From: Squalus acanthias | Lineage: Eukaryota | Assembly (NCBI GenBank): GCA_030390025.1 | Contig: CM059431.1 | Location: 158,040,001-158,104,000 of the forward strand | DNA: 64,000 nucleotides | Reading direction: 5' to 3' | Shown here: positions 895 to 62,824 of the stretch, in pieces | How positions within the stretch are numbered: position 1 is the first letter of the stretch | Layout of the letters: every line of letters begins with the position of its first letter | Notes under the pieces: generated by a model | Told to the model about the DNA's origin: nothing | Seen by the model: only the letters and a program-made list of their open reading frames with translations | Database searches by the model: none | Made by a program: the position numbers and the translations under genes

Positions 895-1055
895 ATACTA
901 AAACATTACTGATGCTGAAGAGCTACACGGATATCCAGCTGCGGAGAATTATGAAGCACCACCGTCAGATTCTAGAACATTCAATTGAAGAATTCGTGGA
1001 GACTGTTAGTCAGACGCTTTTTGATGTAAAAGTATTTACTGAAACTGATTATGAG
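895..1055 (+). CDS. CARD module exon A1
   Basis: ttcag|AT ACT...TAT GAG|gtatgc; (D)[53 protein letters not shown]. Confidence 0.85.
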
Positions 1056-4000: not shown

Positions 4001-7000
4001 TGAATTTCTGAAAGCACGTTGTGAGCTTTCCAAAATATTACTGTTACTATCAACCAATAATGTTTGATTTTGGTCGAATCCCATTCCTGCAAAACTAACT
4101 TTCCCTCTTTTATTCAGCACTTTATCCTTTTCCATCTATTAGCTGAGAATATAGAGTTTTCTTGGCTGGCTCAACGATGCTCCTCTCTGTCTTTGCAACT
4201 CTCCGTGATCTCTGTGCTCATCGAATTCAGGGCATTTGCTCTTCTCCGATTTTCTTCGCCTCACCATTGGCAGCAGAGCCTTCAGATTCCTTGGCCCGAA
4301 ACTCTGAAATTCCTCAGCTGATCATCTCCTTTAAGAAGCTCCATAAATCTTAACACATGCCCAAGCTTCTGGTCATCTGGTTGTGAGATTTTCTATTCAT
4401 TCATCTCATAATGAGAGGGAGAAAAAGAAAATCGTTTTTTAGCTGGTTATTGAGTTACTTGGCTCAATATGAATGACATTTTTTTTTAGAAAATCTTACC
4501 TCTCGCTGAAAGTCAGCGCAGATGCGACGCTTCCAGTCACATTTTCGATATCGTGCTGGAAAAGGGAGCTCGGGGAAGAAGAACAATCTGGAACATTTTT
4601 CTTCAACTGCAGAACAACGAACCCCATCTGAAAGAGATAATTTCAGACGAACAGAACAGAGATACATGGTTAGAAAATAATCTGGAAGGTATGTGGTGCC
4701 CAATTATAACTTGCAAAAGATCGTGTTTACTGTTAGAGTAAAAAAGTTCTTTATTTATGGCGAGGACATTATTTTAAGTTTGGCTGTGAGGATGACATTC
4801 TACATGGGCGGGTAAACAAAACAGGCGGATTTGCATTTGCCGACCTGTATAAAACACGCCTAGTACTCAATTCTATTCAAGGTTATTCGGGCGCAGTGTA
4901 TAATAGGAGATCGATGCAATTCCGCCTGCAATATAGCTTCGATAAAAAATGTGCGAAACCGCCTCTGAACATAGACATTTAAGAGGGGAAGTGAAAAGGA
5001 AAGTAAAGGGGGCAAAGATGCAGCATGGGAATAGATTGGCAACTAACATAAATGTGAATCCAAAAGTTTCTATAGGCATATAAATAATAAACAGTTAGTA
5101 AGAGAAGGATTGGGCCCGACGAGGGAACAAAAAAGAGACCTACGCACGCAGCCAGAGGGCATGGCTGAGATACTAAATGTGTACTTTGCATCTAACTTTC
5201 CAAGGAAGAAAATGCTGTAACGGTCATAGTGAAATAAGAGGTAGTCACAATACTGTATGGGGTACAAATTGGTAAACAGGAGGTATTAGAAAGGCTTGCT
5301 GACCGGCTGGTATGAATCCTTGGATGCTGAGGGAGGCAAGGGTGAAAATTGAGGAGGTACTGGCCATAATCTTCCAATCCTACTTTGAAACGGGAGAGGT
5401 GCCAGAGGAGTGGAACATTTCAAATTTGTTCAAACGAATGTGTACGTTTAAATCGAGCAACTACAAACCAGACAGTTTAACCTCTTTAATGAGTAAGCTT
5501 TTCAAAGCGATAAATCTTGACAAAATTAAGAGCTACTTCGACAAGTGTGGATTGATTATGGAAAAGCAACACTGATTTTAGAAAAGCAAATCGTGTTTAA
5601 CTAAATTGATTCATTTTTCTGATGCGGTAACAGAGAAAGTTGGGGGCTGGAGGGGTTGGGCTGGTGAGGGCAATGCGGTTGACGTCGTGTACGTGGACTT
5701 CCAAAAGCCGTTTGGTAAAGTGCCGCTTAATAGGCTTGACAGCAAAGTTGAAACTCATGGAATAAAAGAGAAAGTGGCAGCATCGATGCCAAATTGGCTT
5801 AATTACAGGAAACAGATAGTATTGGGGAACGGTTGTCTTTCGGACTGGAGGCAGGTGTTCCACATGGGTCGGTACTAGGTCCACTGATTTTCTGGATATA
5901 TAGTTAAGATTTGGACATGGTTGTACCGCGCACAATTTCAAAAAATTGAGGATCACAAAATACTTTGAAGTTATAGTGAAAAGTGAAAAGAAAAGTGATA
6001 GACTTCAATAGGACATAGACAGGTGGTGGAATGTGCGGACACGTGGCAAAAAAAATTAACGCAGAAACGTGCGAAATGATACATTTAGGCAGGAAGAACG
6101 AGGAGAGGCAATATAAAATAAAGGTAAGAATTCGAAAAGGGCTGCATGATCAGAGAGACCTGAGGGTATATGTGCACAAATCGTTGAAGCTATCAGGGCT
6201 GTTTGAGAAAGAGGTTAAAAAGCTTATGGGAGACTGGGATTCATAAATAGAGAAATAGAGGACAAAAGCAAGGTCGTTATAATGAACATTTATTAAACAA
6301 TGCCTCGATCTGAACTGGTGCATTTTGTCCAATTCTGGGACCGAACTTTAGCAATAATATTAAGGCCTTAGAGAGAGTGCAGAAAAGATTTACGAGAATG
6401 ATTCCAGGGATGTGGGTCTTTGGTTATTTGGTTGACTGAAGAAGCTGGTTGCGTTCTCTTTAGAGCAGAGAAGGTTGAGAGGAGATTTAATTGTAGAACT
6501 GTACTAGCTACAGTCATGTCTAAGCTAAAGTATTTCCCTTTGTGCGATTATTTTCGATTGAAAAATAAAACTGTTTCCCCAAAGATTTGTTTCCTGCACT
6601 CGGTGTATTGATATCCTTAAAGTTTAGGGTGACTGCCTGTTGGCTTCAAATTATTTCCATTTCTCAGTTCCTGTTTCACAATTTAGCCTTCCTTGGAATA
6701 ATGAAGGAAAAATGGAAGCAGGAATGAAGTTATATTTAACTTTTTCATTCTTTTAATCTCTGTATGTTATTTATTACCTCTTCAGACAGAAATGTGAAAG
6801 GCACGACTATGTCTAATTGTTCAACAGCATCTGCTGATTCCGAGGCATTAAATTTAACCTGGAGTCTCAGATCATCGTCAGGAACAATTATAAGTTAATA
6901 TTCTTGACATGCACTTCCATATGAATATTTGCTTGTACTTTTTCCATTTTCCTGTAAGCTTCAGATACGTTTCCTCAAATGACCTTCAGGCCGAGACCGT

Positions 7001-10000
7001 CATTAACTCCAGCTTGTCCAAAGCTCTATTGCTTCAATTCAAATTCAGCCTCAGTTCCCTAAACCAAATAGTCACTGACTTACATTCACTTCTTATCCCA
7101 AATTGATCATGTGTGAAATGGTCCTACACATCCTCAACTAAATCTACGTCCCCACCCAGCTTATCCCTACGGACTTCGTAACATGCCCTCTGTTACACAA
7201 CTCTCCCTCGCTGTGGTCTCTAGTATATCGGTTCTTCTGCTCTGCCCTCCAGGCATACATGTCCATCCCACTGACTCCGTTCCTAAGGGTCCGCTCTTTC
7301 TACTTCTTACATACTTGAACCAGCCTTCGCTTTCGGAAGGATTGGGTCTTTCCTCCTAACTATACCAAAAAGAGATAGCATTAAACCTTAATTCCTCCTC
7401 TGTGAGGCTCCACTGACGGTATCACTGATTGAAAGGCTTTAATAAACGTTGTTGCTATATCATTTGGTCCACAGTATTCATTGTTTTATAGCGGGCACAG
7501 TATTTTAATCTGTTCTCATTTACATCTTGACATTAAATTCAGATACTAAAACCTTACTGATGCTGAAGAGCTATACGGATATCCAGTTGCGGAGAATTAT
7601 CGAGTGCTACCGTCAGAGACTAGAACATTCAATTGAAGAATTCGTGGATGCTGTTAGTCAGACGCTTTTTGATGTAAAAGTGTTTACTAAAACAGATCAT
7701 GAGGTATGCAACAAATATGGTGAAATTTCACAGTGTTAAAGAGTCATTAGTCAGAGTTCAATTAACGTTATTCCGTGCAACCCAACGATGTAAGAAGTAT
7801 TCGATAGTGACATTGAGATTGTGTCCGCTGTCAATTAAAACAACATTTTAAATGTTCCTCTGAGATATATCTCCGTTAAAGTAATTGATTCTTTAATCTT
7901 CAGTTAATGCATTAAGTAATGAGAAAACAGCATCTCATGGTTTAACTATGTTTGCTTCATGCCAGCGTCCGAGATCCAAATATCGTTAAGTGCTTCTTCA
8001 ATGGCTATCCCTCATGAGGTCAGAATTGGGGCTAGTCATGGATGATTCAGTGTTCAGCTCCATTTACAATTCCACCAATAATGAAGTATTCCATCCCCAT
8101 ATGAACCTAGACTTGGACAACCTCCAGGTTTGTCCAGATAAGTGACAAGTAGCATTCGCGCAACTCAAGTTACAGGGAATGACCATTTCCGCAAAGAGAG
8201 AGTCACATCATCTCTCCCTGATATTTAATGGAATTACCATCAGCGAATCGGCCACCATCAACATCCTGGAGGACAGGACTAAAATCAGCTCTATGAATTC
8301 ACTGTGAAACGTGCGGCTGTTAAGTTAATTCCACCGGCCGCATTTCTGCAGGGAATGGATTTACTCCAGTTTCTGAAAGGGCGTCATATCAAATGATCAA
8401 TTGCCCCAAATTACAGGATTGCAATTGCCAAGCCCAGACGAATCGAAATTAATATTTTAAAAAGAGACCACTAGCAGAACTACCATCATGCGTCCTCAGC
8501 ATAGCCCCAGTGGAAAACCTGGAGATAGATACATCTTGTAATAGCGACATACTTCTAATATCACATGAAGAAATTAACTGACGTTGAAAAGATAAGCTGC
8601 CGGAATGAAAGGCAGTGAGTTTCCGTCAATTCTCTATCAAAGGAGCCCTGTTTCTCCAGTGAACCATCATATTGGTTTTAGCCATTGCCGGTGCCTCGGA
8701 TCTCTAGAAATTGCTAGTGAACGATCTAAATCGTCGCTTCGATTTTTCTGCTCCTTTGATCTTCAGAGCATTACTGCCTCTCTCTGCCTTTATAATACCT
8801 TCCCTGCCACAAGTTTTATGTCGAACTAAGACATTTTATTAATTTCTAAGCTCACAGAATCTGCCTTATTTCACGTATCACCGATGACTCGCAGTCTTCA
8901 TTCAGTCTATGGGATATGCAGCATACTGCCTTGATTCCTGGCCAGCCATGGTCATGCCCCTACTTGGGCTCACTGCTCAGTGTCGTTACTAATACTGGCC
9001 ACTCCGCAGTCATCATCCACTGAGGTCAAGACTACCATAATGACCCATTCCATAAAAACAATCTCTAGACTCATCTATAATGTTCACATGCTTGCTTTTA
9101 CGAATATCTCCGACAATTACCTAAAAAGTATATCCAAAGTTTTCCGAATACAGCTTGTTAGTTGAAGGCACAGAATGTCTGGGGATATGCTATAAATTCT
9201 GATGTACAGACATTAATAGCTTATCTGGCTTAGGTAAGGACAGGATTTGGAGGGTGAATGTATTATTAAAAGATACAATTGCAGCACGGGATCTCATGAC
9301 TGATATAAACAATGCTTCGCCAAATTAAACCATAAGTTTAGGGTTTCAGAATAATAAAGGAGCGGTTATCATTCATCGAATAGTGGGAAATGGATAGAAG
9401 AAGATCAATAGTGAAACATTGAGAAAGTGCAGCAATAACAGTAATATGCTTATTGCTGACGTTAAATCTCCAAAGGAAAGAAGTATCATAAGTGTGGGAT
9501 AAACGGCATGTTTTTCGCATGTCCGGTACGTTGTTTAGATTGCTATTTTTTTTAGGAAAACAAGAAGTGAATGAGCATTGATCCAATTTCTTGAAACGGG
9601 GAGGGACTAGTAGGTGATCTAAGGGTAGTGAAACATCCAGGAAAATATGATATCATTAGGATTCATATGAAGCGTAAAAGAAAACGGATCAATGAAAGCA
9701 ATATACATTTTACAGGAATAAATCAAATTTGAACGAAACTAAAATACTAGCCCGAATATATTCGCACGTTAATGAGCAGAAAAAGCCGCGGAGAAGCAAT
9801 GAGAATCGGCCGAATAGGAGAAGGTTGCGATAGAAGATACACAAAGTACACGAGAATAAAAGTGTCGCAGCAAAAACGAGAATTGCTTGGACCTGCATAG
9901 AAAATGAACCAAAATTGAGATTTTAAAATAAATATAGATTAGAAGGGCTGATTAAGTAAAACAAATCAATGAAACACGGAGAATATAAAATAGAATCGAA

Positions 10001-13000
10001 ACTATCAAAATTTATGAAACGAATGAGTGGCATGTGTCAGAATTAGAGACAATTATCATATTTCATAAAATCCTCAAAAACAAATATTCAAAGAACAGAG
10101 CTGTTTAGAGATGTAAACTACAAGGTTCATAAAGAGCATGAAAAAGTGACTGATAAGCTTTTGCTGCTGTTGCGATGAAGGAAGGTGATTCTTGGAATGA
10201 ATGAAAGGCTCATTGAAGTAAATAGAATTAATCTCGGATGCGGCGTAAATAGGGCCACCTATTCGCTTTCAGCCCCTTTCGTGCTACTGAACAACAACAA
10301 ATTCACACACATTTTTATGTTTTTTAATTTCTGCAATTTGAATTTGTGAAACCACGTTGTGAGTTTTCCAAAATATTACTGTTACTAAAAACCAATAATG
10401 ATTGATTTTGGTCGAATCCTATTCCTGCAAAACTAACTTTCCCCCTTTTTTCAGCACTTTATCCTTTTCCATCTATTAGCTGAGAATTTGTTGTTTCCCT
10501 GGATGGCTCAACGAGGCTCCTCTCTGTCTCTGCAACTCTCCGTGATCTCTGTGCTCATCCAATATAGGTCATTTGCTCTTCTCCAATTTACTTCGCCTCA
10601 CCATTGGCAGCAGAGCCTTCAGATGCCTCGGTTCGAAGCTTTGAAATTCCTCAGCTGCTCATCTCCTTTAAGAAGCTCCTTAAATCTTAACCCTTGCCCA
10701 AGCTTCTGGTCACCTGATTGTGAGATTTTCTATTCATTCATCTCATAATTAGAGGGGGACAAATTTAAGACGTTTTTCGTCTGGTTATTGAGTTACTTGG
10801 CTCAATATGAATGACATTTTTTGTTCAGAAAATCACAGCTCTCGCTGAAAGTCAGCGCAGATACGACGCTTCCATACACATTTTCGATATCGTGCTGGAA
10901 AAGGGAGCTCGGGGAAGAAGAACAATCTGGAACATATTTCTTCAACTGCAGAACAACGAACCCCATCTGAAAGAGATAATTTCAGAGATACAGAACAGAG
11001 ATACATGGTTAGAAAATAATCTGGAAGGTATGTGGTGTCCAATTATAATTAGCAAAAAATCGTGTTTACTGTTAGAGTAACAAATATCTTTATTTATGGC
11101 GAGGAATTTATTTTAATTTTGGTTGTGAGGATGACATTCTACATGGGCGCATAAACAAGACAGGCGGATTTGCATTTGCTGACCTTTATACAACACGCCT
11201 AGTATTCAATTCTATTCAAGGTTATTCGGGCGCAGTGTACAATAGGAGATTGATGCCATACCGCCTGCAGTATGGCTTCGACAAAAACGGCCTCTGAACA
11301 TAGAAATTTAAGAGGGGAAGTGAAAAGGAAAATAAAGGGGGCAAAGAGGAAGCATGAGAATAGATTGGCAGCTAACAGAAATGTGAATCCAAAAGATTCT
11401 ATAGGCATATAAATGATAAACAGGTAGTAAGAGAAGGATTGGGCCCGACTACGGAACAAAAAAGAGACCTACGTACGCAGCCAGAGGGCATGGCTGAGAT
11501 ACTAAATGTGTACTTTGCATCTAACTTTCCAAGGAAGAAAATGCTGTAAAGGTCATAGTAAGAGAGGAGCTAGTCGCAATACTGGAAGAGATACAAATTG
11601 ATAAAGAGGAGGTACTAGAAAGGCTTGCTGACCGGCTTGTATGAATCCTTGGATGCTGAGGGAGCTAAGGGTGAAAATTGAGGAGGTACTGGCCATAATC
11701 TTCCAATCCTACTTAGAAACGGGAGAGGTGCCAGAGGTCTGGAAGATTTCAAAAGTTGCACACTTGGTCATAAGAACGTGTACGTTTAAATCGAGCAACT
11801 ACAAACCAGTCAGCTTAACCTCTTTAATGACTAAGCTTTTAGAAACGATAAATCTTGACAAAATTAACAGCCACTGCGACAAGTGAGGATTGATTAAGGA
11901 AAGTCAACACTGATTTTAGAAATGCATATCGTGTTTAACTAAATTGATTCATTTTCCTGATGCGGTAACAGAGAGGGTTGTGGGCTGGTCGGGGTTGGGC
12001 TAGTGAGGGTAATGCGGTTGACGTCGTGTACATGGACTTCCAAAAGCCGTTTGGTAAAGTTCCGCTTAATAGGCTTGACAGCAAAGTTGAAACTCATGGA
12101 ATAAAAGGGAAAGTGGCAGCATCGATACCAAATTGGCTTAATTACAGGAAACAGAGGGTATTGGGGAACGGTTGTCTTTCGGACTGAAGTAATGTGTTTC
12201 CCTTGGGTAGGTACTAGGGCCACTGATTTTCTGGATAATTAGTTAAGATTTGGAATTGGGTGTACCGCACACAAGTTCAAAAATTTGAAGATCACAAAAT
12301 ACTTGGAAGTATAGTGAAAAGTGAAAAGGATAGTGATAGAATTCAATAGGACATAGACAGGCAGATGGAATGGGCAGACACGTGACAAATGAAATTTAAC
12401 GCAGAAACGTGCGAAATTATACATTTAGGCAGGAAGAACGAGGAGAGGCAATATAAAATAAAGGTAACAATTCTAAAATGGCTGCATGATCAGAGAGAAC
12501 TGGGGTATATGTGCACAAATCGTTGATGCTATCAGGGCTTCATTAATAGAGAAATAGAGGACAAAAGCAACAAAGTTATAAAGAACATTTATTAAACACT
12601 GCCTCGATCTGAACTGGTGCATTTTGTCCAATTCTGGGACCGCACTTTAGGAAGAATATGAAGGCGTTAGAGAGAGTGCAGAAAATATTTTCAAGAATGG
12701 TTCCAATGATGTTGGACTTTGGTTATTTGCTTGCCTGGAGAAGCTGGTTGCGTTCTCCTTAGAGCAGAGAAGGTTGAGAGGAGATTTAATTGTAGAACTG
12801 TATTAGCTACAGTCATGACTAAGCTAAAGTATGTCTCTTTGTGCGATTATTTTCGATTGATAATGAAAACTATTTCCCCAAAGATTTGATTCCTGTACTC
12901 GGTGTATTGATATCCGTAAAGTTTAGGGTGACTGCCTGTTGGCTTCACAATATTTCCATTTCTCAGTTCCTGTTTCACAATTTATTCTTCCTTGGAATAA

Positions 13001-16000
13001 TGAAGGAAAAGTGGAAGCACGAATGAAGTTATGTTTAATGTTTCATACTATTAATCTCTGTATGTTATTTATTAGCTCTTCAGACAAAAATGTGAATGGC
13101 ACGACTATGTCTTAGTGTTCAACAGCATCTGCTGATTCCTAGGCATTAAATCTAACCTGGAGTCTCAGATCATCGTCAGGAACAATTATAAGTTAATATT
13201 CTGGACATGCACTTCCATATGAATATTTCCTGGTACTTTATGCATGTTCTTGTGAGTTTCAGATTCGTTTCCTCTAACGTTCTTAGGGCCTAGCCCGTCA
13301 TTAACTACAACTTGTCCAAAGCTCTATTGCTTCAATTCAAATTCAACCTCAGTTCCCTAAACCAATTAGTCGCTGACTTACATTCACTTCTTATACCAAA
13401 TATATCATATGTGAAATGGTCCTACACATCTTCAACTAAATCTAACGCCGCACCCAGCTTATCCCTACGACTTCGTAACATCCCCTCTGTTACACACCTC
13501 TCCCTCGCTGTGGTCTCCAGTGTATCGGTTCTTCTGCTCTGCCCTCCAAGCAAAGATGTCAATCCCACTGACTCCGTTCCTAAGGGACCTCATCTTTCTA
13601 CTTCTTACTTACTGGAACCAGCCTTCGAATTTTGCAAGGACTGGGTCTTTCTTCCTAACTATACCAAAAAGAGATAACATTAAATCCTAATTGCTCCACT
13701 GTGAGGCTCCACTGACGGTTTCACTGCTTGAAAGGATTTTATAAACGCTGTTGCTATATCATTTGGTCCAGAGTATTGATTGTTTTATAGCGGGCACAGT
13801 ATTTTAATCTGTTCCCATTTACATCTTGAACTAATATTCAGAGACTAAAACCTTACTGATGCTGAAGAGCTACACGGATATCCAGCTGCGGAGAATTATC
13901 GAGTGCTACCGTCAGAGACTAGAACATTCAATTGAAGAATTCGTGGAGGCTGTCAGTCAGAATCTTTTTGATGTAAAAGTGTTTACTGAAACAGATCATG
14001 AGGTATGCAACAAATATGGTGAAATCTCATAGTGTTAAATGAGTCATGAGTCAGAGTTAGATTATCTTTATTCCGTGCAACCCAGCGATGTAAGCAGTAC
14101 TCAATAGTGACATTGAGATTGAGTCCGCTGTCAATGAAAACAACATTTTAAGTGCTCCTCTGAGATATATCACTGGTAATTTAATTTGTTCCTTAATCTT
14201 CAATTAAAGCATTAAATAATGGGAAAACAGCATCTCATGCTTGAACTATGTTTGCTTCATGGCAGCGTCCGAGATACAAATATCGTTAAGTGCTTCTTCA
14301 ATGGCCATCCTTCATGTGGTCAGCATTGGGGCTAGTCACTGATGATTGCAGTGTTCAGCTCCATTTGCAATTCCCCCAATAATGAAGTAGTCGATCCCCG
14401 TATGAAGCTAGACTTGGACAACATCCAAGTTTCTCCGGATAAGTTACAAGTAATATTTGCACAACTCAAGTTCCAGGGAATGACCATCACCGCAAAGAGA
14501 GAGTCACATCATCTCTCCCTGATATTTAATGGAATTACCATTGGCGAATCGGGCAGCATCAACATCCTGGAGGACAGGACAAAAACCAGCTCTGTGAATT
14601 CACTGTGAAATGCACAGCAGTTAAGGTAATTCCAGTGTCCGCATTTCTGCAGGGGATGGATTTTCTCCAGTTTCTGAAAGTGGACATAGAGGGCGTCCTA
14701 TCAATTGATCAATTACCCCAAATTACTGGATTGGTAGGGCCAAGCCCAGACGAATCGAAATTAATATTTTAGTAAGAGATCACTAGAAGCACTACCATCA
14801 TGCGTCCTCAGCATAGCCCCAGTGGAAAACCTGGAGAAATTTGAAACTTCCAATAGCGACATACTTCTAATATCACATGATAAATTAACTGATGTTTAAA
14901 AGCTAAGCTGTCGGAATTAAACATCAAAGGAACTCTGTTTTTCCAGTGAACCATCTGATTGGCTTTAGCCATGCCGGTGGAGCGGATGTCTAGAAATTTG
15001 AAGTGAACGTATCTAAATCTTTGCATCGATTTCTCTGCTCCTTTGCACTTCACAGCATGGCTGCCTCTCTCTGCCTTTCTAATACCTTCCCTGCCACAAT
15101 TTTTACATCGAAATAACCACTTTCTTATTTTTTACTCTCAAACAATCTGCATTATCTCATGAATCACCGAGAACTCGCAACATTCGTCCAGTGTATGGGA
15201 TATGCAACCTACTGCCTTGACTCCTGGACAGCTCAGGTCATGCCCCTTGTTGGACTCAATACTCAGTGTCGTCACTAATACTGGCCTCTCATCAGTTTTC
15301 AACCTCTGACGTCAAGACTGCCATAATGACCCATTCCATAAAAAAAATCTCTGGACTCATCTATAATGTTCACATGCTCGGTTTTCCGAATATCTCCTAC
15401 AATTACCTAACACATGTATATACAAAGCATTCCGAATATAGCTGGTTAGTTCAAGGCACAGATTGTCAGGGGATATGCTATAAATTATGATGTACAGACA
15501 TTAATAGTTTATTTGGCTTAGGTAAGGACACGATTAGGAGGGAGAAGGTATTATTAAAAGATACAATTACAGCACGGGAACTCATGGCCGATATAAACAA
15601 TGCTTCGCCAAATTAACCCTTACATTAGGGTTTTTAGAATAATAAAGGAGCTATTATCATGCATCGAATAGTGGGAAATGCATAGAGGAAGAGTAATAGA
15701 GAAAATATGAGAAAGTGCAGCAATAACAGTAGAATGCTTATTGGTGACTTTAAATATCCAATGGATAGAAGTAATATAGGTGTTGAAAAACGGCATGTTA
15801 TTCGCTGCCTGTCCGGTACGTTGTTTAGATTGGTATGGTTTTATGAAAAAAAGGAAGGAATGAGTATTGGATCCATTTCTAGAAACAGGGAGGGCATTGT
15901 AGGTGATGTACGGGTAGTGGAACATCCAGGTAAATATGATATCATTGGGATTCATATGAATCGTAAAAGATAACGGGACAATCAAAGCAATATTCATTTT

Positions 16001-40000: not shown

Positions 40001-43000
40001 CTCGAAGGGCCGGATGGCCTACTCCTGCTCCTATCTTCTATGTAATCTATGTAATCCCTACGACTTCGTAACATCCCCTCAGTTACACACCTCTGCCTCG
40101 CTGTGGTCTCCAGTGTATCGGTTGTTCTGCTCTGCCCTCCAGGCATACATGTCAAACCCACTGACTCCGTTCCTAAGGGACCTCCTCTTTCTACTTCTTA
40201 CATACTTGAACCAGCCTTCGAATTTTGCAAGGACTGGGTCTTTCTTCCTAACTATACCAAAAAGAGATAACATTAAATCCTAATTGTTCAACTGTGAGGC
40301 TCCACTGACGGTTTTACTGCTTGAAAGGCTTTTATAAACGCTGTTGCTATATCATTTGGTCCAGAGTAATGATTGTTTTATAGCGGGCACAGTATTTTAA
40401 TCTGTTCTCATTTACATCTTGACATTAAATTCAGATACTAAAACCTTACTGATGATGAAGAGCTACACGGATATCCAGCTGCGGAGAATTATCGAGTGCT
40501 ACCGTCAGAGACTAGAAAATTCAATTGAAGAATTCGTGGAGGCTGTCAGTCAGAATCTTTTCGATGTAAAAGCGTTTACTGAAACAGATCATGAGGTATG
40601 CAACAAATATGGTGAAATCTCATAGTGTCAAATGAGTCATGAGTCAGAGTTAGATTATCTTTATCCCGTGCAACCCAAAGATGTAAGCAGTGCTCAATAG
40701 TGACATTGAGATTGAGTCCGCTGTCAATGAAAACAACATTTTAAGTGCTCCTCTGAGATATATCACTGGTAATTTAATTTGTTCTTTAATCTTCAATTAA
40801 TTGATTAAATAATGAGAAAACAGCATCTCTTGGTTGAACTATGTTTGCTTCATGCCAGCGTCCGAGATCCAAATATTGTTAAGTGCTTCTTCAATGGCCA
40901 TCCCTCATGAGGTCAGAATTGGGGCTAGTCACTGATGATTGCAGTGTTCAGCTCCATTTGCAATTCCCCCAATAATGAAGTAGTCGATCCCCGTATGAAG
41001 CTAGACTTGGAAAACATTCAGGTTTCTCCGGATAAGTGACAAGTAACACTTGCGCAACTCAAGTTCCAGGGAATGATCATCTCCTCAAAGAGAGAGTCGC
41101 ATCATCTCTCCCTGATATTTCATGGAATTACCATTGGCGAATCGGCCAACATCAACATCCTGGAGGAGAGGACAAAAACATGCTCTGTGAATTCACTGTG
41201 AAACGCAAAGCTGTTAAGGTAATTCCAGTGTCCGCATTTCTGCAGGGGATGGATTTACTCCAGTTTCTGAAACTGGACATCGAGGGCGTCCTATCAATTG
41301 ATCAATTACCCCAAATTACTGGATGGCAAGGGCCTATCCCAGACGAATCGAAAATAATATTTTAATAAGAGATCACTAGAAGCACCACCATCATGCGTGC
41401 TCAGCATAGCCCCAGTGGAAAACCTGGAGAAAGTTGAAACATCCAATAGCGACATACTTCTAATATCACATGATAAATTAACTGATGTTTAAAAGCTAAG
41501 CTGTCGGAATTAAACTACTTGCGTTTCCTTCCATTCTCTATCAAAGGAGCCCTGTTTTTCCAAATAACCATCTGATTGGCTTTAGTCATGCCGGGGTTGC
41601 GGAAGTCTAGAAATTTGAAGTGAACGTATCTAAATCTTTGCTTCGGTTTCTCTGCTCCTTTGCACTTCACAGCATGGCTGCCTCTCTCTGTCTTTCTAAT
41701 ACCTTCCCTGCCACAATTTTTACATCGAACTAAACACTTTCTTATTTTTTAATCTCAAACAATCTGCATTATCTCACATATCACCGAGGACTCGCAACAT
41801 TCTTCCAGTGTATGGGATATGCAACCTACTGCCTTGACTCCTGGCCAGCTCAGATCATGCCCCTTCTTGGACTCACAGTTCAGTGTCGTCACTAATACTG
41901 GCCTCTCCTCTGTCTTCATCCTCTGACGTCAAGACTGCCATAATGACCCATTCCATAAAAAAAAAATCTCTGGACTCATCTATAATGTTCACATGCTCGG
42001 TTTTCCGAATATCTCCTACAATTACCTAACACATGTATAAACAAATTATTCCGAATATAGCTGGTTAGTTGAAGGCACAGATTGTCAGGAGATATGCTAT
42101 AAATTATGATGTACAGACATTAGTAGTTATTTGGATTAGGTATGGACACGATTAGGAGGGAGAAGGTCTTATTAAAAGATTCAATTACACCACGGGAACT
42201 CATGGCCGAGATAAACAATGCCTCGCCAAATTAACCCATAAATTAGGGTTCTCAGAGTAATAAAGGAGCTATTATCATGCATCGAATATTGGGAAATGCA
42301 TTGAGGAAGAGTAATAGGGAAAATGTGAGAAAGTGCAGCAATAACAGTAAAATGCTTATTGGTGACTTTAAATATCCAATGGATAGAAGTAATATAGGAG
42401 TTGAAAAACGGCATGTTATTAGCAGCCTGTCCGGTACGTTGTTTAGATTGGTATGGTTTTATGAAAAAAAGAAATGACAGAGTATTGGATCCATTTCTAG
42501 AAACGGGGAGGACATTGTAGTTGATGTACCGATAGTGGAACATCCAGGAAAATATGATATCATTGGGATTCATATGAATCGTAAAAGATAACGGGACAAT
42601 CAAATCAATATTCATTTTACAGGAATAATATTAATTTTAAAGAAAGTAAAACACTAGCCTAAATTATTGGCACGCTAATGAGCAGAAAAAGCAGCGGATT
42701 AGCAATACGAATCTGGCAAATAATAGAAGATTGCCATAGAAGACACACAAATTACACGGGAATAAAAGAGTCGCAGCACAGACGAGAAAAGCTTGGACGT
42801 GAATAGAAAATCAACCAAAAATGAGATTTTCAAATAATTATACGGTAGTAGGGCTGATTAAGTAAAACAAATTAAGGAAACATGGAGAATATAAAATAAA
42901 AGCGAAAACCTTCAGAATTTATGAAAGGAATGTGTGGCAGGTTTCAGAATTGGAGACAATTATCATATTTCATAAACTCCTCAAAAGTAGTTAAACAAAG

Positions 43001-46000
43001 GACAGAGCTGTCTGGAGATGAAAACTACATGCTTCATATAGAGCATGAAGAATTGACTGATAAGCTGTTGCTGCTGTTTCGATGAATGAAGGTGATACTT
43101 GGAATGAATGAAAGGCTCATTGAAGTAAATAGAATGAAAATCGGCCGTGGCATAAAGTGGGCCACCGATTCTCTATCAGCCCCTTTCGTGCAACTGGCGA
43201 ACAAAAAATTCACACACGTTATATGTTTTTCAATTTCTGCAATTTGTGTTTCTGAAGCCACGTTGTGAGATTATGAAAAATTACTCTTACTATCAAGCAA
43301 TAATGATTGATTTTGGTCGAAACATATTCCTGCAACTTAACTGTTCCCATGTTATTCTGCACTTTATCCTTTTCCATCTATTGCTGAGAATTTAGAGTTT
43401 CACTGGATGGCTCAACGGTGCTCCTCTCTGTCTCTGCAACTCTCCGTGATCTCTGGGTTCATGCATTTCTGGGCATTTGCTGATCCCCGATTAACTTCGC
43501 CTCACCATTGGCAGCAGATCCTTCAGCTGCCTCGGCCCTAAGCTCTGGAATTCTTTCTCGAATCCTCTACTTTATGAAGCTCATTAAAACTTAACACTTT
43601 GAACAAGTTTCTGCTCACCCGATTGTGAGACTTTCTATTCATTCATCTCATAAAGAGAGGGAGAAAGAGAAAAGTCATTTAATATCTGATTATTGTGTTA
43701 CTTGGATCTATATTTTTGCAATTTTTTTTTTAGAAAATCAGATCTCTTGCTGAAAGTCAGAGCAGAAACGACGCTTCCAGATACATTTTCGATACCGTGC
43801 TGGAAAAGGGAGCTCGGGGAGAAAGAGCAATCTGGAACATATTTCTGCAACTTCAGAACACCAAACCCCAGCTGAAAGCGATACTTTCAGAGATACCGAA
43901 CAGAGGTCCATGGTTAGAAAATAACCTGGAAGGTATGTGTTTTCCATATCTAACTTGCAAAAGATCGTGTTCAGTGTCAGAGTAACAAAGTTCATTATTT
44001 ATGGCGAGGTCCTTATTTTAATTAATTCTGACTAGTCCAGCAGCTAACAAAGAAGGGAAACCAAAAATCACCAATGCGGTTGACGTGGTGTACAAGGAAT
44101 TCCAAAAGACGATTGAGAGAGTGCCACTTAATAGGCTCGACAGCAAAGTTGAAACCCATGAACTGAAAGGGACAGTGGCAGCATCGATACGAAATTGGCT
44201 AAGTGACAATAAACAGATAGTATTGGGGAACGGTTGTCTTTCGGACAGGAGTAATGTGTTTCCCTGGGTCGGTACTAGAACCACAGCTTTTGTGTATATA
44301 TAGTTATGAATTGGACTTGGGTGTACAGGGCGCAATTACGAAATTTGCAGGTCACAAAGTACATGGAAGTATAGTGAACAGTGAGAAGAAAAGTGTTGGA
44401 CTTCAAGAGGATATAGACAGGCTGGTGGAATGGGCGGACACCTGGCAGAAGAAATTTAGCGCAGAAAAGTGCGAAATTATACATTTTGGTAGGAAGAACG
44501 AGGAGAGGCAATATAAACTAAATGGTACAATTCTAAACGGGCGGCATGTTCAGAGAGACCTGGGGATATATGTGCACACTTCTTTGATGGTATCAGGGCT
44601 AGTTGAGAAATTGGTTAAAAAGCTGACGGGAAACTGGGCTTCATAAATAGAACATAGAGTACAAATACAAGGAAGTTATAATTAACCTTTATTTAAAACT
44701 GCCTCGACCTCAACTGGAGCAGTGTGTCCAACTCTGGGCACCGTAATTTAGGAAGAATGTGAATGCCATAGAGGGTGTGCAGAATATATTCACAAGAATG
44801 GTTCCAGGTATGAGGGACTTTGATTATGTGGATTGACTGGAGAAACTGGTTGTGTACTCGTTAGAGCAGAGAAGTTTGAGAGGCGAATTAATTGTGGAAC
44901 TGCACTAGCTACAGTCATGTCTAAGCTAAAGTATTTGTCTTAATGTGATTATTTTCTATTAATAATGAAAAGTATTTTTCCAAAGTTTTGTTTCCTGTAC
45001 TTGTTGTTTTGATATAAGTAAATTTTTGTGTGACTGCCTGTTGGCTTCACAATATTTCCATTTCTGAGTTCCTGTTTCACCATTCAGTCTTCCTTAAAAT
45101 AAAGAAGGAAAAATAGAAGCACGAATGAAGTTGCCTTTAGTGTTTCATACTATAAATCTCTGTATGTTATTATTTAGCTCTTTTGGCAAACATGTGAAAG
45201 TCACGATTTTGTCTAATTGTTCAACAGCATCTGCTGATTCCAAGGGTTTAAATCTAACCTGGAGTCTCAGATCACCGTCAAGAAAAATTATACGTTATTT
45301 TCTGGACATGCATTCCAATATGGATATTTTCTGATACTTTATCCATGATTTTGTGAGCTTTATACTCGATTCCTCAAACGACCTGTGGGCCGAGCGCATC
45401 ATGAACTCCAGATTTTCCACAAGTCTATTACTTATATTCAAATTCAACCTCAGATCCGTAAACCACTTGATCACTGACTTACATTCACCTCTTATCCCAA
45501 ATTGATCATGTGTGAAATGAACATAGCCATCTTCAAATATATCTACGGCCCCACCCTCCTTACCCCTACAGTCTTCTTAACATCCCTTCTGTTACACACC
45601 TCTCCCTTGCTGTGGTCTCTAGTTTATCGGTTCTTCTGCTGCGCACTCCAGCCAAATATGACAATCCCACTGACTCCGTTCCAAAGGGCACCCCTCTTTC
45701 TACTTCTTACTTACTTTCACCAGCCTCCGAATTCTGCAAGGACTGGGTCTTTCCTCCAAAATATACCAAAAAGAGACAGCATTCATTCTTAATTCCTCCT
45801 CTGTGAGGCGCCATTGGCGGTATCACTGCTTGAAAGGTTTTAATAAACGCTGTTGCTATATCAGTTGGTCCAGAGTATTCATTGTTTTATAGCGGACAAA
45901 GTATTTTAATCTGTTCTCATTTACACCTTGACATTAAATTCAGATACTAAAATCTTACTGATGCTGAGGAGCTACACGGATATCCAGCTGCGGAGAATTA

Positions 46001-49000
46001 TCGAGTGCTACCGTCAGAGACTTGAAGAGTCAATTGAAGAATACGTGAAGGCTGTTAGTCAGACGCTTTTTGATGTAAAATTATTTACTGAAGCAGATCA
46101 TGAGGTATGCAACATATATAGTGGAATCGCATACTTTTAAATGAGTCATGAGTCAAAGTCAGTGTAACTGTATTCCGTGCAACCCTTCGATATAATCAGT
46201 ACTCAATAGTGATTCTGACATTGAGTTCGATGCCAATGAAAACAACATCTTATGTGCTCCTCTGTGATATATCTCTGGTAACATAATTAGTTCTTTCATA
46301 TTCAATTAATGCATTAAATAATGAGAGAACAGCATCTCATGGTTTTACTATGTTTGCTTCATGGCAGCGTCCTGGGCCCAACTATCGTTAATTGCTTCGT
46401 CCATGGCCAGCCCTCAAGAGATCAGAATTGGGGCTAGTTTCTGATCATTGCACAGTGTTCAGCTCCATTCGTAAATCCTCCAATAATGAGGTAGTACTTC
46501 CCCGTATGAAGCCAAACCTGGACAACTTCCAGGTTTGGCCGGATAAGTGGCAAGTAACATTCGCGCAACTCAGGTGCCGGGCAATGACAATCTCCACCAA
46601 GATAGAGTCACATCATCTCTCCCTGATATTTAATGGAATTACCATCGGCGATTCGGGCAGCATCAACAACCTGGAGGACCGGACTATAACGAGCTCTATG
46701 AATTCACTGTGAAAAGTGCGGCTGTTAAGTTAATTCCAGTGGCCGCATTTCTGCTGGGGATGGAATTACTCCAGTTTCTGAAAGCGGACATAAAGGAAGT
46801 CCTTTCAAGTGTTCAATGACTCCAAATTACAGGATTGCACGGGCCAAGTCCAGACGAATCGAAATTAATAATTTAATAATCCACGACTAGCAGCACTACC
46901 ATCATGCGTCATCAGCATAGCCGCAGTGGAAAACCTGGAGAAAGTTAAAACATGTAATAGCGAAATACTCATAATGTCACATGAATAAATTAAGTGACGT
47001 ATACCAGATAAACTGTCGGAATAAAAGGCCTTGAGTTTCCGTCCATTCTCTGCCAAATCAGCCCTGTTTTTCCAGTGAACCATCTGATTGGTTTGTGCCA
47101 TTTCCGGTGGTGCGGCTTTCTAGAGATTTGTAGTGAACGTATCTAAATCGTTGCTTCGATTTCTCTGCTCCTTTGCACTTCACAACATGGCTGCCTCTCT
47201 CTGCCTTGCTAATACCTTTCCTGCCACAATTTTTACATCGTAAAAAATACTTTCTTTATTTCTAACAGCTCACAATCTGCATTATCTCACGTATCACCGA
47301 GGAGTCGCAACATTCATCCAGTGTATGGGATATGCAACCTACTGCCTTTATTCCTGGCCAGCTCAGGTCATGCCCCTTCTTCGGCTCACTGCTCAGAGTC
47401 GTCACTAATACTGGCCTCTCCTCAGTCGTCATTCTTTGACGTCAAGACTGCCATAATGATCAATTCCATAAAAACAATCTCGGACTCTCCTATTATGTCC
47501 ACATGCACGCTATTCCGAATATCTCCTACCATTACCTAACACATGCATATGCAAAGTGTTCCGAATATAGCTGGTTATTTGAAGGCACAGATTGTCTGGG
47601 GATATGCTATACATTATGATGTACATATATTAATAGCTATCTGGCTTAGGTAAGGACAGGATTAGATGCTAAAGTGTCATGTTACTAATCATTAATGGGG
47701 AATCAAGTTTTAAAGAAAATAGGGAGAAGCTATTTTAAAAGATTGAATTGCAGCCCGGGAACTCAGGGCTGATATAAGGACTGCTTCGCAAAATTATTCT
47801 ATATGTGTGGGGTTACAGAATAATAAAGGAGCTATTATCATGCATTGAATAGTCGGAAATGGATAGAAAAGCAGTAATCGAGAAAACAGACAAAGTGCAG
47901 CAAAATCAGCAACAGAGTGACTGGTGATTTGAAATAGCCAATGGATAAATGCAACCTAACTGTGAGAGAAAGGGCATGGTATTTGCCCTGTCCGGTACGT
48001 TCTTTAGATTGGTATGGTTTTAGGAAAAGAAGGAAGGAATGAGTATTGGATCAATTTCTAGAAACGGAGAGGGAATAGTAATCGAGCTAAGTTTAGTGGA
48101 CTATCCAGGAAAATATGGTATCATTAGGATTCATATGAACTGTAGTAGGTAACATTACAATCAAAGCAACATATCTTTTACAGGAATAACATTAATTTTA
48201 ACGCAACTAAAATACTAGCCCAGATATATTGGCACGTTAATGATCAGAAAAGGCAGCGGAGAAGCAGTAAGAATCTGCCGAATAGGAGAAGATTGTCATA
48301 GAAGATACACAAATTACACGAGAATAAAAGAGGTGCAGCACAAACGAGAATTGCTTTGATGTGCATAGAAAATGACCGAAAAATGACATTTTAAAATAAG
48401 TATAGGGTAGGAGGGCTGATTAAGTAAAACAAATCAAGGAAACATGGAGAATATAAAATAGAAGAGAAAATTTTCAATTTTTTTGAAACGAATGAGTGGC
48501 AGGTGTCAGCATTAGAGAAATTATCTTATTTCATAAACACCTCAAAAACAATTAATCAAAGGACAGAGCTGTGTAGAGATGAAAACTTCAAGGTTCATAA
48601 AGAGCATGAAGAAGTGACTGATAAGCTGTTGCTGCTGCTTCGATGAATGAAGGTGATACTTGGAATGAATGAAAGGCTCATTGAATTAAATAGAATGAAA
48701 ATCGGTCGTGGCATAAAGTGGGCCACCGATTCTCCATCAGCACCTTTCGTGCAACTGGCCAACAAAAAATTCACACACATTAAAAGTTTTGCAATTTCTG
48801 CAATTTGAGTTTCTGAAACCACGTTGTGATATTATGATAAATTACACTTACTAACAACCAATAATGCTTGATTTTGGTCGAAACCTATTACTGCAACTTA
48901 ACTGTTCCCATTCTATTCTGCACTTTATCCATTTCCATCTGTTGCTGAGAAGTTAGAGTTCCACTGGATGGCTCAACGGAGCTCCTCTCTGTCTCTGCCA

Positions 49001-49491
49001 CTCTCCGTGATCTCTGGTTTCATGCAATCCTGGGCATTTCCTCATCCCCGATTTCCTTCGCCTCACCATTGGCAGCAGAGCCTTCAGCTGCCTCGGCCTA
49101 AGCTCTGAAATTCCTGCTCTAATCCTCTCCTTTAAGAAGCTCCTTAAATCTTACACTTTAAACAAGCTTCTGCTCACCCGATTGTGAGATTTTCTATTCA
49201 TTCATTTCATAAAGAGAGGGAGAAAGAGAAAAGTCGTTTAATATCTAATTATTATGTTACTTGGCTCAATATGTTTGCAATTTTTATTTTAGAAAATCAG
49301 ATCTCTCGCTGAAAGTCAGAGCAGAAACGACGCTTCCAGACACATTTTCGATACCGTGCTGGAAAAGGGAGCTCGGGGAGAAAGAGCAATCTGGAACATA
49401 TTACTTCAGCTTCAGAACACCAAACCCCAGCTGAAAGCGATACTTTCAGAGATACCGAACAGAGGTCCATTGCTAGAAAATAGTCTGGAAG
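895..49491 (+). CDS. Multi-exon gene segment encoding 7 tandem CARD-like domains (14 exons, 2520 nt, ~840 aa); 5' end outside window, 3' end not identified
   Basis: join(895..1055,4490..4688,7543..7703,10829..11027,13842..14002,18585..18783,22795..22955,26068..26266,28880..29040,32223..32421,40435..40595,43734..43932,45944..46104,49293..49491). All junctions are AG/GT, phases are compatible, and there are no stops. The module fits the CARD pattern (YRQRL..I...V..V...L....VFT..D.E...D.S..IFD.VLEKG....IW..F.......P.L). Domain call is by eye, no HMM run. Confidence 0.8.
2856..3157 (-). mobile_element. CR1-type 3'-end fragments (LINE tail or SINE), unit-1 specific
   Basis: (ataagaac)n tail followed by aggagcaggagtaggccaatcggcccttcgagcctgctccgccattc. 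Absent in unit 2 and flanked by gggataa on both sides. Confidence 0.75.
4490..4688 (+). CDS. CARD module exon B1
   Basis: tttttag|AAA ATC...CTG GAA G|gtatgt; [66 protein letters not shown]. Confidence 0.85.
4870..6490 (+). mobile_element. Old degenerate CR1 ORF2 remnant downstream of exon B (homologous copy in every unit)
   Basis: Broken RT peptides such as [30 protein letters not shown] and [10 protein letters not shown], with many stops and frameshifts. Boundaries approximate. Confidence 0.85.
7543..7703 (+). CDS. CARD module exon A2
   Basis: ttcag|AT..GAG|gtatgc; (D)[53 protein letters not shown]. Confidence 0.85.
10829..11027 (+). CDS. CARD module exon B2
   Basis: gttcag|AAA..GAA G|gtatgt; [66 protein letters not shown]. 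Confidence 0.85.
13842..14002 (+). CDS. CARD module exon A3 (absent from ORF track)
   Basis: ttcag|AG ACT..GAG|gtatgc; manually translated (E)[53 protein letters not shown]. Confidence 0.85.
16601..18075 (+). mobile_element. Young 5'-truncated CR1 LINE; uninterrupted 458-aa RT C-terminal ORF (16616..17992)
   Basis: [32 protein letters not shown] and FADD motifs, followed by a CR1 3' UTR. Absent from the twin unit at ~25552. Confidence 0.95.
18585..18783 (+). CDS. CARD module exon B3
   Basis: ttttag|AAA..GAA G|gtatgt; [66 protein letters not shown]. Confidence 0.85.
19131..20316. mobile_element. Penelope-like element insertion 1: two truncated 3' ends in inverted orientation
   Basis: Arms invert at ~19708 and encode the GIY-YIG ORF C-terminus (..[14 protein letters not shown]). 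12-bp TSD gtcggtactagg at 19119..19130 and 20317..20328. Confidence 0.9.
20186..20227 (+). ncRNA. Minimal type-I hammerhead ribozyme motif in Penelope terminal region; copies at + 22618-22655, 27485-27526, 36128-36169, 59530-59571, 62716-62752 and - 19180-19221, 20449-20486, 34043-34080, 35414-35455, 52365-52401, 58549-58590
   Basis: tcac-CTGAGGA-a-ggagc(loop)gctcc-GAAA-gc-TT-gtga contains the catalytic cores CUGANGA and GAAA, stems I and II, and a palindromic mini stem III (AAGCTT). Confidence 0.75.
20358..22707. mobile_element. Penelope-like element insertion 2: ~1.07-kb inverted arms with ~180-bp spacer
   Basis: The + arm has an open frame at 21465..22280 (RIHRICSD...CKTC...NVVYLIRC...[21 protein letters not shown]). 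Its mirror image lies at 20397..21462. TSD tatataatttgg at 20346..20357 and 22708..22719. Confidence 0.92.
22795..22955 (+). CDS. CARD module exon A4 (absent from ORF track; same peptide as A3)
   Basis: ttcag|AG ACT..GAG|gtatgc; open frame. Confidence 0.85.
26068..26266 (+). CDS. CARD module exon B4 (B3 with S>N)
   Basis: ttttag|AAA..GAA G|gtatgt; open frame. Confidence 0.85.
26985..27575. mobile_element. Penelope-like element insertion 3 (short inverted arm plus direct arm)
   Basis: Junction at ~27091. 12-bp TSD cttcataaatag at 26973..26984 and 27576..27587. Empty site at ~44640. Confidence 0.9.
28880..29040 (+). CDS. CARD module exon A5
   Basis: ttcag|AT..GAG|gtatgc; (D)[53 protein letters not shown]. 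Confidence 0.85.
32223..32421 (+). CDS. CARD module exon B5
   Basis: ttttag|AAA..GAA G|gtatgt; [66 protein letters not shown]. Confidence 0.85.
33459..35213. mobile_element. Non-autonomous TIR DNA transposon (MITE-like), unit-5 specific
   Basis: Imperfect TIRs GGGCCGAAAATTGATCCCG / CGAGATCAATTTCTGGGCC (15/19 match). Empty site gtgccactt|aata at ~50515. GC-rich internal hairpins. Confidence 0.75.
33990..34993 (-). mobile_element. Penelope-like element of a second subfamily, 5'-truncated, nested in the TIR element
   Basis: GIY-YIG ORF 34302..34691 ([14 protein letters not shown]) with a different 3' UTR. Flanked by cttatgaat on both sides. Confidence 0.88.
35365..36260. mobile_element. Penelope-like element insertion 4 (inverted arms)
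   Basis: Junction at ~35923-35936. 11-bp TSD tcgatattaaa at 35354..35364 and 36261..36271. Confidence 0.9.
37752..40053 (+). mobile_element. 5'-truncated CR1 LINE (end of endonuclease through RT) with one nonsense codon (~38321) and one frameshift (~39150)
   Basis: ORF pieces 37751..38323, 38390..39205 and 39150..39959 carry SDHN, QGSVLGP and FADD. Tail is (ctatgtaat)2, with short TSD atccct. Confidence 0.93.
40435..40595 (+). CDS. CARD module exon A6
   Basis: ttcag|AT..GAG|gtatgc; (D)[53 protein letters not shown]. Confidence 0.85.
43734..43932 (+). CDS. CARD module exon B6
   Basis: tttttag|AAA..GAA G|gtatgt; [66 protein letters not shown]. Confidence 0.85.
45944..46104 (+). CDS. CARD module exon A7
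   Basis: ttcag|AT..GAG|gtatgc; (D)[53 protein letters not shown]. Confidence 0.85.
49293..49491 (+). CDS. CARD module exon B7
   Basis: ttttag|AAA..GAA G|gtatgt; [66 protein letters not shown]. Confidence 0.85.
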
Positions 49492-62549: not shown

Positions 62550-62824
62550 GTAATACAAAAAAAAATACAGCAGATGCCGGAATATCTCTTAATTTCTCTC
62601 AACCTCTTCCGCCTTCTATCCTATCACTGAACTTCCCTTTTGTTCTTTCCTCCCCTCTCCTCTTTCCCAGCCTCTACACTTGCTTAAAAATCTGTTCCAT
62701 TTCGTGTTTTTTTACAGTTCTGAAGAAAGGTCATCGACCTGAAACGTTAACTCTGTTTCTCTCTTCACAGATGCTGCCTGACCTGCTGAGTTTCTACAGC
62801 AGTTTCTGTTTTTAATCCGGAATC
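62550..62824 (+). mobile_element. Penelope-like terminal fragment inserted in the last codons of the NACHT exon
   Basis: Same family as 52305-52490 in the opposite orientation. 7-bp TSD ttttaca at 62543..62549 and 62825..62831. Hammerhead motif at 62716..62752. Confidence 0.75.

Follow-up and report, generated by a model that had tools for sequence, protein, structure and literature searches.

Nine open two-exon cassettes for a predicted CARD persist in tandem beside a dead NLR body in Squalus acanthias

The window analysed here, a 64-kb stretch of the 3.7-Gb Squalus acanthias genome (contig CM059431.1, labelled C7; C7:158,040,001-158,104,000), carries most of a tandem array of two-exon cassettes, each encoding one module with a predicted CARD fold from the front end of a cartilaginous-fish NLR family. 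The array comprises nine units with 18 exons (tblastn, 154 kb around the window), of which seven lie in the window and two intact ones lie just upstream, at C7:158025774-158038047, bearing out an original prediction, made from the letters of the window, that more units might be found to the left. No further units were detected downstream of the window's last unit in the same 154 kb. The NACHT/LRR body of the family is dead and rearranged at this locus, yet none of the CARD exons or their splice sites is damaged, and from this we infer that selection still maintains the open array. On balance, we consider it probable that the array is still a selected coding unit, one that would be expressed today, with its cassettes chained, as a CARD-only poly-CARD protein, and that would function as such.

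Within the window, the array forms a seven-fold direct repeat on the plus strand with a unit spacing of 5.5-11.6 kb. Each unit consists of an exon A of 161 nt, corresponding to the half of the module with helices 1-3, followed 3.1-4.6 kb downstream by an exon B of 199 nt, corresponding to helices 4-6 and a linker. Fourteen such alternating exons, with AG acceptors and GTATG donors, had been predicted, and 14 of 14 were recovered in place, each with its splice sites and an open frame. In window coordinates, which are used below for every feature given without the contig label, cassette 1 (unit 3 of 9) has its exon A at 895..1055, with an AG acceptor and a GTATGC donor, and its exon B at 4490..4688. 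These are followed by cassette 2 (A, 7543..7703; B, 10829..11027), cassette 3 (13842..14002; 18585..18783), cassette 4 (22795..22955; 26068..26266), cassette 5 (28880..29040; 32223..32421), cassette 6 (40435..40595; 43734..43932) and cassette 7 (45944..46104; 49293..49491), whose exon B is the final exon of the array. Across all nine units, the splice dinucleotides are intact in 36 of 36 cases.

The phases of these exons allow serial joining. The first two bases of exon A complete a codon; its end lies in phase 0, as does the start of exon B, and B closes with a single G, which forms a GAT or GAG codon with the first bases of the next A exon (AT in five of the seven window units, AG in two). 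One unit therefore adds exactly 360 nt, entering and leaving in phase 1, so that any number of copies can be chained without breaking the frame. Joining the 14 window exons by script gave 2520 nt with no stop codon in one frame, against 46 and 56 in the other two, in agreement with the single stop-free frame of 360-nt units claimed originally.

The units are 85-100% alike. Cassettes 3 and 4 of the window stand out by being 99.4% identical over ~3.9 kb (13755-22707 versus 22708-28800), cassette 4 thus appearing as a duplicate of cassette 3; the duplication may be very recent, or it may be an artefact of the assembly. Judging from this near-identity, amplification has probably been recent and ongoing. 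Cassette 3 contains an extra 1.47-kb piece of a long interspersed nuclear element (LINE) at approximately 16600-18070, with a reverse transcriptase open reading frame (ORF) at 16538-17989. The intron between cassettes 3 and 4 also holds overlapping ORFs on both strands (20827-22277) with a weak match to a GIY-YIG nuclease (E 5e-4, under the Pfam cut-off); they may be the remnant of a Penelope-like retroelement, and a similar ORF is found at 34305-34994.

The receptor body of the same NLR family is present near the array in two disabled copies. The first, on the minus strand, consists of a NACHT-WH-HD2 exon at 62814..64000, running on to 64526 beyond the window, which matches PF05729 (E 5.4e-8) and carries at least three in-frame stops and two frameshifts, together with two LRR exon remnants at 60495..61016, one of which has an in-frame stop. 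The second NACHT/LRR set lies on the plus strand at C7:158125800-158129894, 36.5 kb beyond the last B exon, and is also a pseudogene. These sets (window 60495-64526 and its plus-strand counterpart) form the arms of an inverted duplication of ~11 kb, 94% identical and separated by an 18.5-kb spacer. Both arms have in-frame stops and frameshifts in common, showing that the NACHT exon was dead before the duplication took place. Other family exons were absent when all 93 family proteins described below were compared with the 154 kb; the 18 CARD exons and the two pseudogene arms accounted for every match. An intact same-strand NACHT-LRR downstream of the cassettes, which is a feature of the family, is thus missing here.

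Homology between units also defines where the array stops. On the upstream side, similarity to the B-to-A intron extends 2.8 kb before the first A exon of the array; on the downstream side it ends 1.8-2.0 kb past the last B exon (intron remnant at 49492..51477, plus strand), with no A exon beyond it. Of the hidden poly-CARD gene that had been proposed, the intact and phase-compatible units held up; against a simple gene of this kind stand the nearby NACHT/LRR sets, which are only pseudogenes, and the cut in the array 1.8 kb past the last B exon.

Against this dead neighbourhood, the CARD exons are well preserved. Over the nine units, we counted no indel events in 360 exon columns versus 77 in 2516 columns of flanking intron, confirming the predicted contrast between exons and introns, while nucleotide diversity was 0.088 in the exons and 0.10-0.17 in well-aligned intron flanks. 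The substitution variants, at least 103 in number, would be expected to have produced 4.7 stops, and none is seen (P = 0.008); a chance origin of the open array is excluded. The divergence of the two NACHT pseudogene arms, with 529 mismatches and 41 gap openings per 10,613 aligned bases, was taken as a clock. On the assumption that the dead NACHT is the former partner of the window array, ~10.5 disabling changes are expected in the 18 CARD exons (3240 nt) since the arms split, and 0 are seen (P = 2.7e-5); a rough discount for the youngest unit duplications leaves ~8.6 expected disabling changes (P ~2e-4). Genome-wide, among the matches scored, 148 of 150 exon B and 105 of 112 exon A matches are free of stops, compared with 18 of 39 NACHT matches, a difference that exon length explains only in part. 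The much higher rate at which the front ends of these NLRs survive intact, relative to the NACHT bodies, hints that they may serve some function in their own right.

The module encoded by one cassette is best read as a single divergent CARD: ~90 aa would form its six-helix death fold, split over exons A and B, and another ~30 aa a linker. A profile built from 12 canonical CARDs of this genome recognised nine of nine spliced units at 18.8-25.1 bits (best of 200 shuffles, 8.2 bits), in line with the CARD-type death fold that had been proposed for the peptide. Alignment of the family to the same genome's canonical CARDs with hhalign gave a probability of 72% (E 3.3e-5, 66 columns), as one part of the suggested Pfam- and HHpred-type check. 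In the other part, the Pfam CARD model (PF00619) stayed under its cut-off on exon halves scored singly, the one hit among 10 exon peptides scoring 13.3 bits (E 0.089; cut-off 23.9). Elsewhere in this genome the same model picks out 51 canonical CARDs encoded by a single exon, and it matches nothing in the array. Among relatives of the module, P0003 lies above the cut-off with 30.3 bits, and P0002 (23.4 bits) and P0008 (22.9 bits) fall just below it; overall, only three of 53 relatives match the Pfam CARD model at E <= 0.01.

Structural models of relatives point in the same direction as the profiles. The AlphaFold (AF2) model of a single-module relative, P0055, has a mean predicted local distance difference test score (pLDDT) of 88.5 and six core helices. 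Compared by VIA, it resembles the CARD of NLRC4 with a Z-score of 11.7 (root-mean-square deviation 1.9 over 87 residues), ARC with 11.4 and the zebrafish ASC CARD with 11.3; of the 34 highest-ranking rows, 32 are CARD entries, with a death domain first appearing at rank 35 (Z-score 7.6). Foldseek likewise ranked the CARDs of ARC, NLRC4, CARD8, Apaf-1 and caspase-1 first, with TM-scores of 0.7-0.8 on the target (0.75-0.80 for the top ranks), but with E >= 0.14. Of the four modules of the catshark protein P0001, the two with good coverage are modelled as separate six-helix bundles (pLDDT >90) with a low-confidence linker between them. The solved structures nearest to the P0055 model are CARDs rather than DD, DED or PYD folds. 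By the models, the module is a divergent CARD, the modelled proteins being relatives 38-51% identical to the window unit rather than the window's own spliced product. Sequence searches of the PDB with exon B alone and with an exon-B profile returned no CARD chain and only chance-level matches, and a word-based protein search of exon B against longer proteins scored nothing. Divergent exon-B copies in long open frames, considered as candidate single-exon CARDs, were rejected as being the same split exon.

Searching 1.84 billion representative proteins with the exon-B profile yielded 93 proteins at E <= 0.001, 72 of them at E <= 1e-10. The named members come from sharks, rays, sawfish and chimaera, including entries from Pristis, Hypanus, Hemitrygon, Carcharodon and Callorhinchus. 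NACHT was found in 10 of 20 members scanned, usually together with NOD2_WH, NLRC4_HD2 and LRR domains, and the homology identifies the window module as the N-terminal region of a cartilaginous-fish NLR family with this body, called 'NLRP3-like' in databases. Most members carry the automatic names 'NACHT, LRR and PYD domains-containing protein 3-like' or 'uncharacterized', and one UniRef entry reads 'CARD domain-containing protein'; the family is therefore public only under names that are misleading with regard to its N-terminus ('PYD domains-containing').

Repeated N-terminal modules had been suspected to exist already in automated shark annotation, and they do. A whole-unit profile found the module in 85 of the 93 library proteins (75 once, seven twice, two three times and one four times). 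Mustelus asterias XP_078087540.1 (P0004) has three modules followed by NACHT-WH-HD2-LRR; its modules are 51% identical to the window unit, and their halves align separately, one to exon A and one to exon B, breaking off where the exons end. Five modules precede the NACHT in Scyliorhinus torazame XP_072354261.1 (P0096), four are present in GCB66031.1 of the same species, and two in Cetorhinus maximus XP_078390056.1 (P0008), while short single-module gene models exist in other species. Among the public models seen, none had as many modules as the window array, five being the most. Chained CARD modules on shark NLRs are thus not new in principle, being already present in automatic annotation in 2-5 copies; what is new is the scale, with nine units at the window locus and at least 15 at a sister locus, and a CARD array that has outlasted the loss of its NACHT. 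Our survey of the literature on elasmobranch and fish NLRs, on multiple or tandem CARDs and on Scyliorhinus found no paper describing a repeated-CARD NLR architecture. In the portions available to us, the whale shark genome paper handles NLRs by their NACHT domains (PMC8455134), and a 2025 review of fish NLRs gives tandem CARDs only for NOD2 and makes no mention of sharks (PMC12436146).

A hydrophobic segment, IMREQ..TLL...FLLGAL, is conserved between P0008, where it comes after two CARD modules at the C-terminus, and P0096, where it lies between modules 4 and 5; the N-terminus of P0004 also has hydrophobic stretches. The position of this segment hints that some family members could be membrane-anchored CARD-only proteins, and P0096 may be a fusion of two neighbouring genes. 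A terminal transmembrane exon like that of P0008 and P0096 was sought at the window locus, and the sole matches, at 29247-29339 and 46318-46410 (E 0.03-0.05), were rejected because they begin right after a stop codon, fall within the intron between A and B and are disrupted in cassette 2. In all seven window units, a short intronic open frame starting with IMREQH occurs ~210 nt after the A exon, broken in cassette 2; its weak similarity to the tail of P0008 is probably due to chance.

The scale of the expansion is seen most clearly at sister loci on the same contig, where matches to exons A and B alternate strictly and end 2.2-5 kb before intact same-strand NACHT exons. The largest locus, (AB)x15 at C7:154613184-154714372, has at least 15 modules, with the NACHT 2.2 kb later. 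At C7:153719776-153800260, an arrangement B(AB)x12, comprising at least 12 (12-13) pairs, is followed by a NACHT, and at C7:155454232-155519429 at least eight modules, (AB)x8, lie 5 kb ahead of one. All of these counts are lower bounds, drawn from search tables in which 150 of 438, 150 of 240 and 39 of 1701 candidates were scored, and the sister exons were judged from these tables, except for pieces of 9 kb and 6 kb of the 15-module locus. The arrangement lacking at the window locus, an intact same-strand NACHT downstream of the cassettes, is found at C7:154.71, 153.80 and 155.52 Mb; a fourth locus, at C7:158.57-158.61 Mb, has at least five modules, (AB)x5, before a NACHT with two stops. The piece read at the 15-module locus shows a donor at the end of the last B exon and an open NACHT frame of 614 codons, and the phase-1 acceptors of the NACHT exon would read G+AG, the same codon as at the B-to-A junction. 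The loci at 153.8 and 154.7 Mb, with their near-identical spacing, look like a segmental duplication. If their cassettes are chained, the sister loci would encode NLRs with 8-15 CARDs.

Several points weigh against reading the window array as a selected poly-CARD gene, in addition to the poor Pfam scores and the reliance on models of relatives set out above. The array is 3'-truncated inside a B-to-A intron, and the same-strand NACHT downstream of it is a pseudogene with the inverted copy in between. The clock's pairing of array and dead NACHT is itself an assumption. Neither a start exon nor a terminal exon was found in the 154 kb: the N-termini of P0004, P0008 and P0096 gave no credible match there, the 6 kb preceding the 15-module paralog, compared with the 26 kb preceding the array, had only LINE elements and the immediate flank of exon A in common with it, and neither a stop-bearing terminal exon nor a polyadenylation site could be identified for the array. 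At the level of residues, the ratio of nonsynonymous to synonymous divergence (dN/dS) over 36 unit pairs is 0.93 (mean dN 0.093, mean dS 0.100), near neutral; variants are spread evenly over the codon positions (35/33/35), and they avoid the columns conserved in the family only weakly (rho -0.20, p 0.03; of these columns 13 of 38 vary, compared with 39 of 78 others, Fisher p 0.12). The signature is one of a frame strictly kept with relaxed residues, which would be expected for redundant modules in one long frame; gene conversion from intact sister arrays could also yield it, holding the exons open without selection on the window locus.

These observations could also describe an orphaned relic, the silent front end of an NLR with a dead body, whose exons have stayed intact through young duplicates such as cassettes 3 and 4 and through conversion from functional sister arrays. 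The stops and frameshifts shared by both NACHT copies, the truncation, the near-neutral substitution pattern, the absence of end exons and an exon diversity only moderately under that of the intron flanks all speak for such a relic. Set against it are the absence of disabling changes where ~9-10 are expected since the pseudogene arms split, the contrast between 0 indel events in the exons and 77 in the flanks of the very same units, which conversion tracts could produce only by sparing the adjoining intron indels, and the retention of all 36 splice dinucleotides. We regard a relic as somewhat unlikely, and the preservation of frame and splice sites as better explained by a selected coding unit.

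The same exon phases would also permit the locus to act as a bank of cassettes, with one or a few used per transcript, through skipping of exon pairs or joining of A(i) to B(j), giving alternative or hybrid CARDs and no nine-CARD protein. Each cassette is frame-neutral and, with A ending and B starting in phase 0, any A can be joined to any later B in frame; moreover, the acceptors of the A exons have poor pyrimidine tracts and those of the B exons strong ones, and public gene models carry only 1-5 modules. Skippable cassettes would, however, be expected to tolerate breakage, whereas broken ones are rare (0 of 18 exons here, and rare genome-wide among the matches scored), and the gene models with 3-5 modules chain them serially. 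Although it would be the more novel outcome if true, we judge such a bank to be improbable. The further possibility that the units are nine independent single-CARD genes, with a promoter and an end for each and no joining of B to the next A, finds some encouragement in a conserved methionine inside exon A, which aligns with the start of the catshark model P0001, and in the short single-module models of other species. All A exons nevertheless begin within a codon behind an acceptor, all B exons break off within a codon at a donor, no first or terminal exons were seen between units, and relatives' gene models join B to A. On the strength of the exon phases and of the missing first and last exons, we rejected independent genes, which we hold to be extremely improbable.

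Taking the selected poly-CARD unit as the preferred reading, the history of the locus may be pictured as follows. A frame-neutral cassette encoding a folded domain would have been multiplied by unequal crossing-over, to nine copies here and to 8, 12-13 and 15 at the sister loci. In CARD-bearing NLRs, the CARD recruits CARD partners upon oligomerisation of the receptor, and by analogy the CARD chain ahead of the NACHT-LRR in working members of this family would do the same once the receptor oligomerises. At the window locus, the receptor body has been lost with nine CARDs left open, and the product would be a chained CARD-only protein that might act as a multivalent recruiter or as a decoy through homotypic CARD-CARD binding, as primate CARD-only proteins do. 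A more far-reaching version, which we think rather doubtful, treats the cassette as a freely amplifiable block, such that working NLRs would bear 8-15 serial CARDs and the NACHT-dead array would make a giant CARD-only protein (~1080 aa, nine CARDs) serving as a pre-assembled seed of CARD filaments or as a sink for them, or such that any A combined with any later B would diversify the signalling domains.

Known CARD sensors carry one or two CARDs, and signalling requires many receptors to be gathered in order to seed a CARD filament. If the chaining is real, a single chain of 9-15 CARDs could nucleate or cap filaments alone, and the giant poly-CARD or combinatorial versions would constitute an innate-immune architecture without a described counterpart. 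The shark loci offer a natural series of module numbers (1, 2, 3, 5, 8, 9, 13 and 15), in which the NACHT is live in some cases but not in others, and the phase-symmetric two-exon cassette illustrates a route by which folded domains can be expanded through unequal crossing-over.

The closest known relatives of the array are the cartilaginous-fish 'NLRP3-like' gene models, with which it shares a ~120-aa module (47-51% identity to the window unit) split over two exons at the same position, serial chaining of B to A and, in pseudogene form, the NACHT-NOD2_WH-NLRC4_HD2-LRR body. These models, all automatic predictions, have at most five modules, in contrast to nine in the window array and at least 15 at the sister locus, and their NACHT body is a pseudogene at the window locus. 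More distantly, the array resembles NOD2, RIG-I and MDA5 in placing more than one serial CARD at the N-terminus of an innate sensor, and the CARDs of RIG-I and MDA5 are among the structural matches; these sensors, for which two CARDs are named in the parts of two papers available to us (PMC8455134, PMC12436146), have exactly two functionally differentiated CARDs, unlike the nine near-equivalent copies arising from recent tandem duplication here. Among teleosts, the model CAL8349490.1 of Arctogadus glacialis (P0063) also has many serial CARDs (PF00619, 304.8 bits in eight stretches), plus Death domains, so that cartilaginous fish may not be alone in having many-CARD chains; it lacks a NACHT, however, and is unmatched by the unit profile, which places it outside the module family.

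The nearest described analogue is the zebrafish NLR-B30.2 family, for which the portion of Howe et al. (2016, PMC4852459) available to us describes extensively duplicated N-terminal repeats, each an exon-encoded peptide of ~30 aa. There, too, an N-terminal module of fish NLRs varies in copy number, is shuffled between genes and occurs in large tandem clusters; as described in that portion, it is a ~30-aa peptide motif with no folded death domain, whereas the shark cassette comprises two exons and encodes a whole CARD.

A different kind of parallel is provided by the primate CARD-only proteins CARD16/COP, CARD17/INCA and CARD18/ICEBERG, single CARDs that derive from duplicates of caspase-1 and regulate through CARD-CARD contacts. 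ICEBERG is among the Foldseek matches of the P0055 model. As may be the case in the shark array, their CARD exons have survived where the remainder of a duplicated inflammasome gene was lost. Measured against COP and ICEBERG, the array shows 0 disabling changes in 18 exons versus ~10 expected, yet a dN/dS of 0.93. The primate proteins are single CARDs derived from caspase-1, in contrast to the nine that the shark array would supply from an NLR.

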